Positions 6,001 through 32,024 of a stretch of 32,024 nucleotides of DNA are shown piece after piece. Location of the stretch: IMG/VR virus record IMGVR_UViG_3300025389_000068, positions 1 through 32,024 of that record; one strand, 5' to 3'. The position numbers and the translations under genes were made by a program. Below the pieces are notes generated by a model that did no database searches, had not been told where the DNA came from, and worked only from the letters and a program-made list of their open reading frames with translations. Within the stretch, counting starts at the first letter, position 1, and every line of letters starts with the position of its first letter. The DNA comes from a virus (taxonomy: Duplodnaviria; Caudoviricetes).

Positions 6001-9000
6001 TATTTCCTGCAACAGATAAGTTGCTTGTATATAATCCTGAGTTTGCAACAATTACTACATCTGCAACACCATTAGCACCCATATGGATATTACCATTGAC
6101 TACTGGGATGCTAACATTACTAGTACCATTTGCAATGCTGTTTGATGTACCACCTGAAGCTTGTACACCAGTTAATTGACTACCATTACCAAAATAGAAC
6201 CCTGCTACTACATTACCACCAACATTGACATTAGTTGATATATTAGCGTCACCGGCAACAGATAAATCACCACCTGTTACTAAGTTGCCACCAGTAATTG
6301 TATCAGAAGCATCAATTACCCCGCCTGTATAAATATTACCACTTAATATTTGACCAACATTTAAATTTGATTGTACATTAACATTTCCATCTGAAGTTAT
6401 ATCACCTGCAGAATGAATAGTACTACGAGAGTATAGAGACAGAACATTAGCAGTGCCAATTGTGTTTATCCAGCCACCAACAGTAACATTTCCACCAACA
6501 GTTTCATTTCTAGCTACTGTTAAATTACCACTTAATGCTGTATCTCCTGTAATATTTAAAGGGCCGTTGGTTATAGTTACTGGACCATTAAGAATAGTAC
6601 TGAATAGAGAAGTTAGATTTCCAGTTTGTGTATTTCCAGATACTGTTAAGTTTTGTACCCCAGTAATAGTAGCAACTGATAGTATTCCTGTAATTGATGT
6701 ATTTTGCAATACACTCAAGTTACTAGTTAAAGTAGTTGATGTTGGGGTGACAGTTACAACATTAGATGTTCCGCTTACGCTAATACCAACTGCCCCACTT
6801 GGTGCAATTCTTAGATTACTTGTACCATTAATTATAGTGAAAACATTGGTTATGTTACTTACTTTTAGATTACCAGTAACATTCACATTACCGCCGATAT
6901 TAGCAGCATTTGTCAAATTCAGGTTACCAGCAATATTAGCATTAGCAGTAGAGCTTATATTACCAGAAACATATACACCATTGTTGGCAACTAAGAATAC
7001 ATTAGGGATGCCTGCAACTGAGAATGTAGTATTTCCGCTATAACGGGTAACAATATTACTTGAACCGTTAACCATTGATGTTCCGGCTGTAGCTTGGATA
7101 CCAGTTAGATAGAAACCATTACCTACAAAGAACTGTGCATTAGCTTGATAACCTAAATCAGCATTAGCTGCCATTAACTCACCAGCTACTGTTAGATTGC
7201 CACCTACATTAGCATTTGCAACTATATTAGCATTACCACCTACTACAACACTACCACCTATATTAGCGTTAACTCTTATATTAGCATTGCCACCAACAAC
7301 TAAATTACCAGTGATGTTAGCAATACCCTTGATATTAGCACCAATTGTAGAAACATTTAATACATTTGCAATACCACCAACTGTAATAGTTGCATTTCCA
7401 TTAGGGAATAATACCTCAATATTACTTGAACCATTTTCTAATCTACTATAAGGAGGTCCGCTAGCTACAACGCCAGTTAAATAGAAACCATTACCGACGA
7501 AATAATTACCTTGAACAGCATTACCCAAGTTAGAATATGACCCAGATCCTGCTTCAATGTTTCCAATGATTGTTATGTTGTTACCTACACTAACATTGTC
7601 AGCAAAAGTACCAGTGTTACCACTTACATCATCAACAGCGGAAATGTTACCCAATGATATTAAATTGCCAGCTGTGATATTACCTGGAACATCGAAATCA
7701 CCTGTAACAGTTATAGATTGTGCAGTTATAATACCAGTGACAGTTACATTACCATCAACATTAGTATTTTCTGTTACGCTTAAATTACCTTCTACTACTG
7801 CATCACCAATGAAGTTTACACCGCCGGTAAAATTAGCCTGTCCAGTTACATTTAACTTACCTTCTAACAGCATATTAGTATCTAAACTACTTGCTCTAGT
7901 TACAGTCATAGAACCACCGTAACCTATTCTGGTCATTGTCATTGAACCAGAACCAGTTGTTAATGTTAATGATGCACCACCAACAGTAGCAGAAATAAGT
8001 ATATTGGTATATGGTTGTGTAGGTGATAATGAAGCGTCAACCAGTCCAACTATATAATATGTTACACCAAGTGATACTCCACCAAAAACAGTGCCAGTAA
8101 ATTGCACTGCGTCATTTAAATTAAATCCATCAAGATATTCAGGTGGGTTTTGTACGGTAAAGTAATCACCACCTGGATCTAATGTAGCTAAAGTTATTGT
8201 AGCAACAATAGCATTAGTTACCTGCATTGATCCAGATGCATCAGTTAATGTAAGTGGTGCAAATGTTCCTGTGCTTTGTGGGTCTGAAGAAATCTGTAAT
8301 GTAGTAGAAGTAGATGAATATACATAGTATGTTGTATTTGCTACTATTCCACCAAATGTTGTACCAGTAAATTTAACACCTGCTCCAACTACAAATTGAG
8401 TTCCATTATTTACAGTTATTGTATTATCTGTTGCTGATGTTGCTGTTGCTGTACTAATTAATTCTACTGATAATGGTGCTTCACCTAATAAATTAGATAC
8501 TGTTAATGTAGTTGATGTTGGTTTTGTTTTTACATAATAAGTTCCACCAGTAGATACATTACCAAAAACAGTGCCAGTAAATTGTACTGGATCGTTAAGA
8601 TTGAATACAGTAGAATCAGTTACAGTGAATACATTACCAGCATAAACTGCTTCAGAAACAGAAGTACTTACTGTTGGTATAGGAGTTGCTGATAATCTAA
8701 TGATGTTTGTGCCAGGATCTGCAAGACTGTCAACATTACCTAAATTAATATATATGTTACCACTTGAGTCAGGTGTACTGATATAAGAATTACCTTTACC
8801 AAGTTTACCTATGATACCAGCAGAACCTAATGTACCACCTGATGCATCTACTGTTAAATAGTTACCAACTGTTGCATTTCCGCCAACACTGATATTGTTA
8901 CTCATTGAGGCGTTGTTACTACTTACTGTTCCTTCTGGTGCACTGATACCAGAATACGGTAAAGTTATACCACCGAATACAGTTACACCACCGGATAAGT

Positions 9001-23899: not shown

Positions 23900-24535
23900 T
23901 TATTTAATTTTGAGATCCTTGATCAGACGAAGGACTTCGCCTTTCAAGTATGTCTCTACTTTTTTGTTGCCTTGAGCATCTTTTGCAATATCTAACAACT
24001 TATGACCATGACGCATATTCATCATGCCTTCATATATTGCTTTAGGGTATGCATTAGGTGCACTTGGTTGTGCAACAATATCCACAGTGACTATTTCAAA
24101 GTCACTTACTTTGCCGTTCATGTCGTCCACGTTACCGCTACCACGACTTGAAACGCCGAGTTTCACTCCACTCTCCAACATGGTAGTTACTAACTGACCC
24201 ATTGGAGTTGGTAAAATCTTTAATTTGCCGAAGCCATTAGCGCCATCCATCCACATTTGAGTAATCATATGTGATACACGGTCTAAATTAATCTTTAAAT
24301 CATCTGGGTGATCTACTTCACCTAAAACTGAGTAGCCACCTGTAATTTGTTCATTAAGAGTTTTTACAGCAGATTCTATTTCAGAAACGGGATAAACACG
24401 CTCATTAGCGTTCTTTACCCCACCCTGAATGAAAATACCCTTCATGTAAAGGGATTTTCCTTTGCCTTCACCTTCACTTTCGACCACCATTCCGGCACGG
24501 TCGAAAGTTAGATGCTCTTTGAGATACAAAGCCAT
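23900..24535 (-). CDS. gp21: Prohead core protease (gp21-like)
   Basis: GIFIQGGVKNANERVY, GEVDHP, LGVSSRGSG and DIVAQPSAPNAYP motifs. Confidence 0.95.
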   Translation of the reverse strand: MALYLKEHLTFDRAGMVVESEGEGKGKSLYMKGIFIQGGVKNANERVYPVSEIESAVKTLNEQITGGYSVLGEVDHPDDLKINLDRVSHMITQMWMDGANGFGKLKILPTPMGQLVTTMLESGVKLGVSSRGSGNVDDMNGKVSDFEIVTVDIVAQPSAPNAYPKAIYEGMMNMRHGHKLLDIAKDAQGNKKVETYLKGEVLRLIKDLKIK

Positions 24536-25711: not shown

Positions 25712-27502
25712 TTACATTGCATTACCTGCGGGTGCAGGTGTTCCACCTGGCATATTACCAGCTTGTCCACCAACAACTGGTCCTGCAACTTCAGGGCCTT
25801 CAGGATTTTCTTCAGGTTGATTTTCAATAGTATCAGCAGTTTCTAAGTCAGCGTTTAAGTCACCTGCACTTACACCAATATTACGCAAATCACTTCCCGT
25901 AGGTTCAATGTCTTCATCCTTATTATGTTCTTCACGCCACATTTTTTCATTCTTGGTAATTTCTTCTTCAGTTAATCCCAAGAATCTTTCTAATGCAAAG
26001 CGTTTACTTATATAGGGAAATGCTTCCATAGAGGAAAATGTATTTACTCGTGTAGTATCTAGTTCACTTTGGCGATAAGCAGCAAAGTTTTGCGGTGGGT
26101 TGAATTCTAATGTGAACAATCCACTGTCAATGTTGAATCCTCTCCAACGCAAGAATAATTTAAATTCTTCGTCTAATTTTTGACTGATGTACTTTTGTAA
26201 CCGTTCACAATATTGATTGAAACGGAACTCTTGAATCATAGCAGTACCAACACGACCATCATTCATTGGTGTCGTGTTATCATCGGGACCTGTAGGTAGA
26301 TAACTACTAGGTACTCGCAAACCACGAGCCAAACGATTATTAAAGTACTTTAAGTCATCTATTTCGCCTAGATTTTGACCACCAGGTAACACTTCAACAC
26401 TAGATCCACGACCATCAGCAGTAACTGGGAAGAAGTAATCTTCGTTCATTGATAACGGATTATAACTAGCATCAACTATTGCTGAACCGCCATTTGTTGA
26501 TGGAATGCGTCTTTGGTGAATTTCATTCTTAATCCGTTCTACAAATGCCATAGCTAAGTGACTTGGCATATTACCAACATCAATTTTAAACATTCTACGC
26601 TCAGGTGCTCGTTGAACACGGTAAATAAGAACCGCATCTTCTAATAATTCTTTTTGCTTGTAAACTTTAAAGATATTTTCTAAAATACTTTGTCCGAAAG
26701 GCCAGAACCTATCTAATCCTTCTGTCAAACTTAAATGCACAACATGTTTAGCGTCAATTGCACTTTCGCTTTGTCCTAGTGTAAAACGACTACCTGTAGT
26801 ATTGTATGGCATACTAGGTACAGTATAGCCATTAGTGTTAGACCCACCACCTGTGCCACCAAGACCAGTTGCTGGGTTAGCCGCAAAGTCTGTATTTGTT
26901 TTCTGTGCTACAGTAAGATTCTGTAAGTTAATGTTAATATCTTTGATGACATACTGTTCCGGTAACTTACCTTCACTCTCGTTAACAATAACTTTGATAA
27001 CTTTGGTCATATCAATCCAGAATAATTTAAATGTTTCTGGATCACGCACAAAAACTTGATCTCCATACTTAACTACATTGCGAAAGATTTTAAATGTTCT
27101 TGTACCAAATTCATTTAACTTGCACCACTGTTGTAACTGTGTTTTTAATAGTTCTACTTCATGTGGGGTAGGGTCTTCAGTGAATTCTAAATTAAATGGT
27201 GTGTTATTATGTTCATTTTTCTGTGTACTGAATTCTGCTAATATGTCTAAACATGCATTGATTTCAGCATCAACATCCATCATTTCATACTGATTATAGC
27301 GTTCAATACGGTTTGGGTGACCTGTATAGACTTCAGGAAGTCTACTCATGTAGTTTTTGTAACCCATTTCAGCGTTATTCCAACCGCCAGTTGGTTGACC
27401 GTTTTGTCCAGGACTACCATTCCATGCGCCAGTGTTGCTATTGCCACCGGCTATTGGACTTGATATACCTGATTTATTAGTAAAGCGTTTTTTATATGAC
27501 AT
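25712..27502 (-). CDS. gp20: Portal vertex protein (gp20-like)
   Basis: LLEDAVLIYRVQRAPERRMFKIDVGNMP, MNEDYFFP, LPGGQNLGEIDDLKYF and LRVPSSYL motifs; GCTAAATA at 27521-27528 upstream. Confidence 0.96.
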   Translation of the reverse strand: MSYKKRFTNKSGISSPIAGGNSNTGAWNGSPGQNGQPTGGWNNAEMGYKNYMSRLPEVYTGHPNRIERYNQYEMMDVDAEINACLDILAEFSTQKNEHNNTPFNLEFTEDPTPHEVELLKTQLQQWCKLNEFGTRTFKIFRNVVKYGDQVFVRDPETFKLFWIDMTKVIKVIVNESEGKLPEQYVIKDININLQNLTVAQKTNTDFAANPATGLGGTGGGSNTNGYTVPSMPYNTTGSRFTLGQSESAIDAKHVVHLSLTEGLDRFWPFGQSILENIFKVYKQKELLEDAVLIYRVQRAPERRMFKIDVGNMPSHLAMAFVERIKNEIHQRRIPSTNGGSAIVDASYNPLSMNEDYFFPVTADGRGSSVEVLPGGQNLGEIDDLKYFNNRLARGLRVPSSYLPTGPDDNTTPMNDGRVGTAMIQEFRFNQYCERLQKYISQKLDEEFKLFLRWRGFNIDSGLFTLEFNPPQNFAAYRQSELDTTRVNTFSSMEAFPYISKRFALERFLGLTEEEITKNEKMWREEHNKDEDIEPTGSDLRNIGVSAGDLNADLETADTIENQPEENPEGPEVAGPVVGGQAGNMPGGTPAPAGNAM

Positions 27503-30212: not shown

Positions 30213-31034
30213 ATGACTAACCCACTAAGACAATATTTCCGTAGACCAGCACTACATTTTACTTTACCTAGCAAGGGAAAGTTTTATCCCGAAGGCGCAA
30301 TTGACATGCCAGAAACAGGAGAATTACCTGTATACCCAATGACAGCAATTGATGAAATAACTAGTAAAACGCCCGATGCATTGTTTAATGGAAGTGCTGT
30401 TGTTGATATTATCAAAAGCTGTGTCCCTGCAATTAAGGATCCATGGAGTGTTCCTAGCACTGATTTAGATGCTATCTTAATTGTTATCCGTTCAGCAAGC
30501 AATGGTAATGATTTTGAAGTTAACTCTACATGCCCAGAATGTAATGAAATGGGGTCGTATAATCTAAATTTAATGGGATTACTATCATCAATTAAGGCAG
30601 ACGGATTTGATGAGATTTTAGATATGGGTGAGTTAAAGATTAGATTTAAACCACTAAGTTATCGTGAGGTAAACAAAGGAAACATAGTTCAATTTAATAT
30701 GCAACGAGAAATTGCAATGATTGAAGAAATGGAAGACCCAGAACAGCGTAGTATTAAATCAGCAGAAACTATGAAAAAATTAACTAAATTAAATGTTGAT
30801 TTTTTGACTAACACAATTGATTGTATTATTACTCCAAGTGAGATGGTTTCATCACCCCAACATATACATGAATATCTAGAAAACTGTGATAAGAGCACAC
30901 ATGATTTAATTCGTGAAAGAGTTGTGAAACTAAGAGATGGGTCGTCAATTAAACCGCAAAAGATTAAATGCGTTAATTGCGGACATGAATATGAACAAGC
31001 ACTAGCATTGAATGTAACTGATTTTTTCGCATAA
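30213..31034 (+). CDS. gp26: Baseplate hub assembly protein (T4 gp26-like)
   Basis: LPSKGKFY, PMTAIDEI, DLDAILIVIRSAS, two CxxC pairs (CPEC, CVNC) and a C-terminal DFFA; GGAG SD. Confidence 0.75.
   Translation: MTNPLRQYFRRPALHFTLPSKGKFYPEGAIDMPETGELPVYPMTAIDEITSKTPDALFNGSAVVDIIKSCVPAIKDPWSVPSTDLDAILIVIRSASNGNDFEVNSTCPECNEMGSYNLNLMGLLSSIKADGFDEILDMGELKIRFKPLSYREVNKGNIVQFNMQREIAMIEEMEDPEQRSIKSAETMKKLTKLNVDFLTNTIDCIITPSEMVSSPQHIHEYLENCDKSTHDLIRERVVKLRDGSSIKPQKIKCVNCGHEYEQALALNVTDFFA
31022..31028 (+). other. Candidate -1 programmed ribosomal frameshift site T TTT TTC
   Basis: X XXY YYZ heptamer in the gp26 frame one codon before the stop; the -1 frame is open from 31022 to 31258. Confidence 0.6.
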
Positions 31035-31081: not shown

Positions 31082-31258
31082 ATGGAGCAGGAGTGCAAAA
31101 TTATTAAAAGTAATGCACTGAAATTTTCTTGGTACATGCGTGGTGGCGTATCCTATGAGGATGTATTGAACATGTCCAATGATGAAAGAGCGGCTATAAA
31201 CGCAATAGTAGAAGATAACCTAGAAACTACTAAAAAGACACAAATGCCATTCTTCTAA
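31082..31258 (+). CDS. gp51-like baseplate hub assembly chaperone, 58 aa from ATG (or C-terminal part of a frameshift fusion)
   Basis: MEQECKIIKSNALKFSWYMRGGVSYEDVLNMSNDERAAINAIVEDNLETTKKTQMPFF; the SYEDVLNMSxxER pattern and position after gp26 fit gp51. Below the ORF-track length cutoff. Confidence 0.7.
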   Translation: MEQECKIIKSNALKFSWYMRGGVSYEDVLNMSNDERAAINAIVEDNLETTKKTQMPFF

Positions 31259-31263
31259 TTATT

Positions 31264-31298
31264 CCCGTAACTATTCATTTATGCAAATTACGGGTTTT
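31264..31298 (+). terminator. Probable terminator after gp26/gp51
   Basis: CCCGTAA (31264-31270) pairs with TTACGGG (31288-31294), followed by TTTT; the loop is unusually long. Confidence 0.5.
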
Positions 31299-31306
31299 CT
31301 ATTTAG

Positions 31307-31770
31307 AGATGAGCTTACGCTCATCTAAGACCTCACTTCGTTCGGTCTTATTTTCTAGGATCATCTATTGTTTTAATTGTTCTTATTGTTTTCTAAGTTA
31401 TCTCTTTTAGGAATACTCTGCCGCTTTGAAGCCATGGTAGTGCTATTCAGCACTACCAATGGTTAAGGGATCTTGCCATGCCCGTCATCCGTTGTCATTT
31501 TTCTCCCGTATAATCGCCTATTTAATGACACTATACGCTACCGGTTGCTCTGTAAAGTTTATGGAGCTGTAGTTAGGCCTATCAATGTCTTTCAATTGAC
31601 GCCTACGCAACGCACATTCTATGACTCAAAAATGAAGTTGTCATAGACTTGTTGAGGGTTCGCTTTGCCGATTGCCCTCTCGGTATTCCCATAGTTATTA
31701 CTAACTATGCTTACTCCAGTTCCATCGGCTATCTTTCAAGCTTCTTCAAGGAGGTCCTGCAACCAGAACA
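31307..31770 (-). ncRNA. Unidentified large structured non-coding element (RNA and/or origin)
   Basis: No ORF of 60 aa or more; at least eight hairpins, two with GUAA (GNRA) loops on the minus strand, plus long-range complementary pairs. Strand is tentative. Confidence 0.55.
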
Positions 31771-31788
31771 ACAAATTTTTATTATATA

Positions 31789-32024
31789 TTAAGTATTGAT
31801 TGTTAGAATATTATTTGTGTTTGACGTGGTGTCTGTTGTGATTGAATATGTTTTTAATATATCAGTACTGTATTGAAAGAAACTATCAAATTCAAAAATT
31901 GTCCAGTCTCCGTGTTTTTTTGAAGTGTAATATACAAAGTTGTCGCTAATCCATGTTAGTTTGCTTTGAACAGCAATATACCGACCTTTACGGTTAAATT
32001 TCATGAATAAAATATTAACATCAT
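31789..32024 (-). CDS. C-terminal part of a protein starting outside the window, possibly a Holliday-junction-resolvase-like nuclease
   Basis: Frame is open to the window edge upstream of Met 32004 (DVNILF-MKFNRKGRYIAV). The family guess is from memory only. Confidence 0.45.
   Translation of the reverse strand, partial: DVNILFMKFNRKGRYIAVQSKLTWISDNFVYYTSKKHGDWTIFEFDSFFQYSTDILKTYSITTDTTSNTNNILTINT

Follow-up and report, generated by a model that had tools for sequence, protein, structure and literature searches.

A conserved pseudoknotted RNA with co-changing direct repeats in T4-like jumbo phages: a possible replication primer and possible relative of Polynucleobacter-1

The gap between two converging gene blocks in a T4-like jumbo phage fragment carries, on the minus strand, a structured core of about 365 nt (31414..31778, ends approximate), for which an RNA-type fold with two pseudoknots is supported by alignment, pair counts, covariation and strand bias, and which ends in two direct repeats that change in concert. 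Sequence comparison suggests that the element belongs to a broader group of structured RNAs, well supported and part of the core genome of widespread jumbo phages, of which Polynucleobacter-1 is the only piece in Rfam. Among the functions proposed in the first-pass annotation (a new phage ncRNA class, a ribozyme or a replication primer) we favour the last: the element is likely transcribed and may serve in cis as the RNA primer with which a replication origin is opened, a reading to which we assign a probability of about 0.4 and which ranks first, with a trans-acting ornate RNA close behind and the remaining explanations less likely. A broader and more tentative proposal is that T4-like jumbo phages of 290-500 kb, from lakes and the sea to cultured phages of E. 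coli and Klebsiella, share one origin built on interchangeable pseudoknotted RNAs of 350-500 nt that find their own template through co-evolving direct repeats, Polynucleobacter-1 then being a fragment of a phage replication-primer RNA. If the element is an origin, it would show how giant phages start replication and give Polynucleobacter-1 a function; if it acts in trans, it would offer a new ornate RNA for structural work.

The window, by which we mean the whole 32,024-nt stretch of viral DNA that was analysed, was assigned to a T4-like jumbo phage by its gene content and its family and phrog matches, which include a prohead protease (23900-24535, phrog_207) and a portal protein (25712-27502, phrog_213); relatives of this phage reach up to 347-525 kb. 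The element occupies a gap (31259-31788) on which two plus-strand genes converge, a gp26-like baseplate-hub gene (30213-31034; PF12322, phrog_150) and a 58-aa ORF (31082-31258) that was called gp51 in the first-pass annotation and gave no match of its own in family and phrog profile searches. It starts directly 3' of the stop codon of a minus-strand gene for a RusA-like PD-(D/E)XK Holliday-junction resolvase (31789-32024; PF24608, E 7e-28; phrog_244), of which the window holds the 3' end. This gene, cut by the end of the window, encodes 184 aa and is complete in the identical locus L001, where genes for an HNH protein and a gp46-like ATPase lie ahead of it, and a resolvase lies upstream in 92 of 96 loci that carry the version of the element found in the window (type A). 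Within the resolvase gene, whose 3' tail is variable, that tail carries a DNA-level motif, GA[CG]A[AC]CA[AC][GC]TCA (minus strand, 31822-31833 in the window), at a distance of 35-60 nt from the start of the element in 74 of 94 type-A loci, sometimes twice. In L015 and L028 (5550-6456, minus strand) a GIY-YIG gene, followed by a resolvase gene without its N-terminus, precedes a type-A element, an arrangement which suggests a nuclease swap in progress. On the opposite side of the gap, a TTTTTTC run (31022-31028, plus strand) is located just before the gp26 stop codon, and a CCCGTAA/TTACGGG stem followed by TTTT (31264-31298, plus strand) behind gp51 is a possible terminator with a long loop; inside this stem-loop the minus strand carries a ATAAATGAATA motif that is kept in many relatives.

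Within the window, the stretch stands out from its surroundings by composition and folding, as had been noted from the sequence. Its GC content is 42.7%, compared with 31.1% and 28.2% in the flanks and 36.3% in the window, and its folding energy was reached by none of 100 shuffles on either strand (z -3.64 for the minus and -4.00 for the plus strand). The region had been described as free of open reading frames; two short plus-strand frames of 57 and 47 aa in fact overlap it, but coding remains unlikely, since the alignment of relatives contains indels of all sizes. The six local stems that had been proposed are exact reverse complements and persist as hairpins across relatives, and the loop at 31698-31701 reads GTAA on the minus strand. 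Three long-range complements fared differently: GGAATAC/GTATTCC and GGTTGC/GCAACC occur in the window as described, and so does TGTCATT/AATGACA, although TGTCATT lies at 31493-31499, one base from the position given, but the three are fully paired in only 2, 2 and 5 of 54 sequences. Similarly, the minus-strand TATAAT put forward as a promoter is present (31786-31781) but precedes the element in only 2 of 54 sequences, so that the three long-range pairings and the TATAAT characterise the present genome rather than the family.

To define that family, 80 loci were retrieved with the gp26 gene as query, and further loci were added by pattern scans. Type-A stretches were estimated at about 250 in IMG/VR and about 230 in metagenomes; a type-A match was found in 262 of 319 loci searched, never two per locus, and the element is single copy in the genomes G001, G003, G005 and G007. 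The matched elements comprised 224 of full length, 154 distinct and 95 non-redundant (<95% identity) sequences, the last falling to as low as 60% identity to the window element. No short contig limited to the element was seen among the 80 metagenome loci listed out of 119. The first 69 non-redundant sequences were taken for an alignment of 68, in which L098 was left out because of a long insertion and the window replaced L001. Over these 68 sequences, a structure of 89 pairs was 92.5% paired, compared with 80.2% after column shuffling and 34-43% when the pairing was slid along the alignment, and two-sided changes occurred in 60 of the 89 pairs, with both pseudoknots represented. Because this structure was drawn from the same sequences, a tree-aware null was added, in which our own G-test with APC (rather than R-scape) was compared with 10 replicates of substitutions redistributed on the tree; 14 pairs, of which 11 were canonical, exceeded every null value. 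The alignment of 68 further contained 292 G-U cells but only 92 A-C cells, which points to the minus strand as the RNA strand. Together, pair counts, covariation and strand bias support the large, multi-domain, pseudoknotted structure suggested in the first-pass annotation.

The type-A fold, read 5' to 3' on the minus strand, opens with hairpin P2 (31754..31769), which is 85.5% paired and shows two-sided changes in all six pairs, followed by the P3 domain (31714..31753) with a CTCC/GGAG closing helix, a conserved TTGA bulge and an inner hairpin; this 5' domain also opens a bridge form described below and, weakly, small type-B elements. Hairpin P4 (31690..31709) is capped by a GNRA-type loop that reads GTAA, GCAA, GCGA or GTGA in 43 of 68 sequences. 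The central domain (31539..31685) comprises P5 (31685-81/31539-43), P6 (31679-31654), P7 (31652-31614), P8 (31611-07/31544-48) and P9 (31605-31574), the last being weak (62% paired). Position 31556 tracks the 31685-31539 pair (T-A/T in 37, C-G/C in 10 and A-T/A in 7 of 68 sequences), which suggests a possible base triple. Pseudoknots had been suggested, and two are supported, but with partners other than those named: in pseudoknot 1 the P7 loop (31635-31630) pairs with 31495-31500 (95.6% paired, five of six pairs with two-sided changes), and seven changes fall on shared branches compared with 0.58 expected, while pseudoknot 2 joins 31566-31563 to 31503-31506 (96.1% paired, three of four pairs with two-sided changes), and its pair 31566-31503 exceeds every null value. 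Hairpin P10 (31507..31537) shows two-sided changes in 10 of 11 pairs. The terminal hairpin P11 (31432..31462) is 96.2% paired with two-sided changes in only 3 of 13 pairs, so that it is conserved mostly at the sequence level. A possible third knot between TTGAAG (31749-44) and CTTCAA (31431-26) is 81% paired, fully in 11 of 68 sequences, without compensation.

The terminal hairpin is flanked by two direct repeats, an upstream copy at 31473..31481 (GC-AT-GGCAA) and a downstream copy at 31418..31424 (GC-GGCAG), which are coupled by identity rather than by complementarity. Over the seven aligned repeat positions, the two copies are identical in 57 of 95 type-A elements, compared with 24.9 in shuffles, and on the tree the changes at position 31481 always coincide with a change at 31424 on the same branch (15/15, with 1.35 expected), a coupling tighter than that of any Watson-Crick pair tested. 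The same behaviour was found in a second version of the element, type C, in which identity covariation links five pairs of columns, each pair separated by exactly 50 columns, identical 7-mers occur in 87 of 95 parsed elements and all 37 changes in the downstream repeat share a branch with a change in the upstream one. Gene conversion as the sole cause was set aside by reasoning, since fixed differences persist beside identical bases. A partner for the repeats within the molecule was not found, and their complement is not enriched inside type-C elements (4 observed, 6.4 in shuffles), which argues that the partner is not in the RNA; the spacing of the copies (50-61 nt in type A, mostly 47-61 in type C) varies, and this makes them a poor fit to helically phased sites on duplex DNA. 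Concerted change of this kind is an unusual constraint and a precise one, and it directs attention to a partner external to the RNA; we infer that both copies are read by the template DNA strand, by another nucleic acid or by a protein. Downstream of the repeats follow an A/T-rich spacer (31349..31413, minus strand; 77% A+T in the window, 79% on average in type A) and two tail hairpins (31347-31329 and 31326-31307, minus strand) with C-GAA-G and C-GTAA-G loops. Loops of the C-GNA-G kind are known as DNA mini-hairpin loops, and hairpins with GNA loops can mark single-strand initiation sites. Of 54 type-A tails, 47 carry a hairpin with a C-GNA-G or C-GNNA-G loop on the RNA strand, and no tail carries one on the opposite strand.

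All versions of the element end in this manner, with repeat, strong hairpin, repeat, A/T tract and GNA-loop hairpins, and in all of them the repeat copies co-change. Of the 80 loci retrieved with gp26, 31 carry type A, 9 type B and 19 type C, so that 59 carry one version and never two, always at the same place and on the same strand; the other 21, many of them short, gave no detected element. Types B and C were estimated at about 680 and 960 stretches, respectively, by search patterns that overlap. Type-A core profiles do not match B or C cores, but tail profiles do cross-match, and spacer and tail follow all three versions. Polynucleobacter-1 (RF01718) turned out to be the 5' part of type C, with scores of 100.6 and 100.2 bits in two of 20 mixed B/C loci scanned; the window gave no RF01718 match at the gathering threshold (37 bits) or at E<=10, and RF01718 was detected in none of five related genomes. 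Type C agrees with the window's type A in position and strand, in its repeat-hairpin-repeat end and tail, and in having a similar central helix; the two differ in that RF01718 covers 141 positions compared with about 365 nt in the window element. A possible link between the versions came from a covariance model of the type-A 5' domain, which gave four matches in 237 kb from 39 sources, all at the 5' start of an element: one in L050 (E 8e-4) and three in small type-B forms (E 0.08-0.99). The L050 element (6330-6720, minus strand) is a bridge form in which a type-A-like 5' domain is joined to a type-C-like 3' half, and it carries its own repeat, TCGGAAA, twice. The gene upstream is exchangeable: a SegE-like GIY-YIG gene takes the place of the resolvase gene in the other types (type B, 55 of 59 loci; type C, 51 of 78). 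In L075-L080 (6880-7300, minus strand), a structured-looking gap behind a resolvase gene has the same tail and no A, B or C core-profile match, and is a candidate further type.

A version of the same architecture is also present in cultured phages. A gp26 homologue was found in 95 cultured-phage records, and at the syntenic place 121Q, Phosso and Paride have 0.8-1.5 kb of DNA in which no known gene lies; in Atu_ph07 the region next to gp26 lacks such a gap. The 121Q gap, which has a folding z-score of -3.76, is common to 72 records at 67-100% identity, among them cultured phages of E. coli, Klebsiella and Cronobacter, and in five divergent copies 40 of 97 predicted pairs show two-sided changes. 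The A, B and C profiles do not detect this element, but by eye it has a central CCGTTG...CAACC helix and the 3' layout of the family. Repeats were seen in six cultured phages: CGTCAAG occurs twice in three of them, CTTCAAG twice in RaK2 and CGTCAG, with both copies shortened, twice in GAP32, while the XaC1 copies differ at the last base. Since the version of the same architecture is found in 72 records of cultured phages, its function is directly testable.

According to the reading that we favour, read-through from the resolvase operon would make the RNA, the folded core would present the upstream repeat, and at the downstream repeat this copy would base-pair with the template strand of the DNA, which alone is complementary to both copies in every case. 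Such pairing could seed a persistent RNA-DNA hybrid running into the A/T tract, leading-strand synthesis would start from the 3' end of the RNA, and the GNA hairpins, exposed on the displaced strand, would serve as helicase or primase loading marks. In ColE1, the persistent hybrid of RNA II forms when a run of rG residues pairs with a run of dC residues in the template, and the T4 origins oriF and oriG use a transcript together with a downstream unwinding element (both PMC4412123); helicase is loaded on the displaced strand (PMC5043065). Like these RNAs, the element would be a folded RNA several hundred nt long with a readily unwound stretch behind it, for which the 77% A+T spacer provides the expected composition, and, as in ColE1, an RNA segment matches a downstream template segment, the match being evident in the concerted repeats and the pairing with DNA presumed. 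This ColE1-type logic accounts for the identity coupling, the fixed position, the single copy, the A/T tract and the tail, and an RNase HI gene beside the 1-kb syntenic gap of the Sinorhizobium phage Phosso (L460, 7837-9237) also favours it. However, in contrast to ColE1 RNA II, the element is pseudoknotted and far more conserved, and neither a conserved promoter nor an antisense RNA I was found; no sigma-70 site was detected upstream of the element in L001, and read-through or a phage promoter could possibly drive it. Such an elaborate fold, with so well conserved a sequence, may in fact exceed the needs of a primer. Further points against priming are that the type-A repeats, short and mismatched by a 2-nt insert, would form a weak duplex, that a protein binding two sites would explain the identity coupling equally well, that Atu_ph07 lacks a comparable gap, that types B and C carry tail hairpins on both strands (24 versus 33 of 54 and 64 versus 48 of 93, respectively), and that by nearest-neighbour energies the tail hairpins are no more favourable as DNA than as RNA. 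RNase H (PF00075) was found in none of five uncultured genomes, where a host enzyme could serve. In G001 and G006, skew at four-fold sites showed no switch at the element, the GC-skew extremes lie at least 39 kb away, and the element is located about 5 kb from the main divergent gene-strand switch, a proximity that may reflect shared synteny.

The principal alternative, somewhat less probable than priming in our assessment, is that the RNA acts in trans, as an ornate RNA of the ROOL, GOLLD or OLE kind or as the scaffold of a ribonucleoprotein, in which case the two repeats would each bind the same protein or a second molecule of the RNA and the tail would protect the 3' end. ROOL and GOLLD are described as phage-borne and pseudoknotted RNAs of unknown function (PMC12286853), and the size of the element, its two pseudoknots, GNRA loops, possible triple and many invariant unpaired bases agree with such a role, as does the variable repeat spacing, which fits binding at the RNA level. 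Yet the element is smaller than ROOL and GOLLD, is fixed in the core genome, has concerted repeats and a GNA tail, and matches none of these families, OLE included, in Rfam. Its position and strand stay fixed while its sequence and the upstream nuclease are replaced, and it does not sit at a tRNA cluster (in G001 the tRNAs occupy 225.7-240.9 kb and the element 293.7 kb, 53 kb away). A conserved promoter and a U-tailed terminator were not found, and a TROVE gene occurs in none of five genomes. The four ncRNAs reported for PA5oct lie outside the gap equivalent to the element's (PMC7318152), though the PA5oct gap itself gave no profile match to the element family.

The position directly behind a same-strand nuclease stop codon (type A, 92 of 96 loci; type B, 55 of 59; type C, 51 of 78) would also be explained if the element were a cis-acting 3' structure of the gp55-gp47-gp46-resolvase mRNA, serving its stability, processing, termination or nuclease feedback, or the RNA partner of the adjacent nuclease. 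We regard this as unlikely, because nucleases of three folds that are not related to one another (PF24608, PF19835 and PF02945) replace each other as the neighbour and because the adjacent nuclease gene in 121Q, Phosso and Paride is on the opposite strand and points away. An RNA-guided nuclease system of the HEARO or omega type was rejected in view of the neighbour, which is a RusA-like resolvase and elsewhere GIY-YIG or EndoVII, and of the single copy. Slightly less probable again is a ribozyme or templating RNA, either self-processing or serving as a template in the manner of DRT2 or telomerase, with repeats that allow template jumps: the compact multi-knotted core, the invariant joining bases and the repeat-bounded unit of 50-60 nt would suit this role, while the element interrupts no gene and matched no ribozyme in Rfam, and reverse transcriptase (PF00078) was found in none of five genomes. 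A retron or DRT template RNA was likewise rejected, as no linked reverse transcriptase was found in these five genomes. Least probable is a folded single-stranded DNA (an origin, packaging or recombination site) with no functional transcript, since the C-GNA-G tail loops and the largely sequence-level conservation of P11, which would fit it, are set against the one-strand G-U excess, varying GNRA loops, covarying pseudoknots and possible triple, all of which are RNA-like.

The type-A element is in no Rfam family. The window element gave no Rfam match at gathering thresholds; the sole match in the window at E<=10, CRISPR-DR62, scored 24 bits with a cut-off of 45 and was attributed to chance. 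ARAGORN gave no match on the window and no interrupted gene was seen, in agreement with the earlier view that hallmarks of tRNA, tmRNA, RNase P and group I or II introns are lacking. That view had extended to a possible new class; the element does stand outside Rfam, but the designation is too strong, given that the syntenic version contains RF01718 and bridge forms link the two. The published literature searched, with few subscription papers covered, held no description of the element, and the name Polynucleobacter-1 was found in a single paper, where it is listed in a table with no function given (Weinberg et al., 2010; PMC2864571). Pieces of the type-A RNA may be among the 8,495 short motifs that Fremin et al. 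(2023; PMC10690425) predicted from IMG/VR; a text search of its supplements, files 1 and 2 excepted, did not recover the conserved words of the element. Searches with BLASTN against cultured phages returned nothing for types A and B and only a 31-base chance match for type C, and a plasmid search with the element gave no sequence match. A search of sequencing runs listed none of RNA that contains the element, a result that carries no information on its expression. In bacterial genomes, 6 of 64 parts were scanned with a pattern that proved too loose, and none of 120 loci matched any family profile.

Two minor observations concern the related genomes. The near-complete genomes G001 (361980-362523) and G006 (287900-288233) each encode a permuted tmRNA, and G001 yielded 46 tRNA calls. 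In 121Q (L462, 7100-7800), part of the syntenic gap matches three to four further places in each Rak2-like genome.
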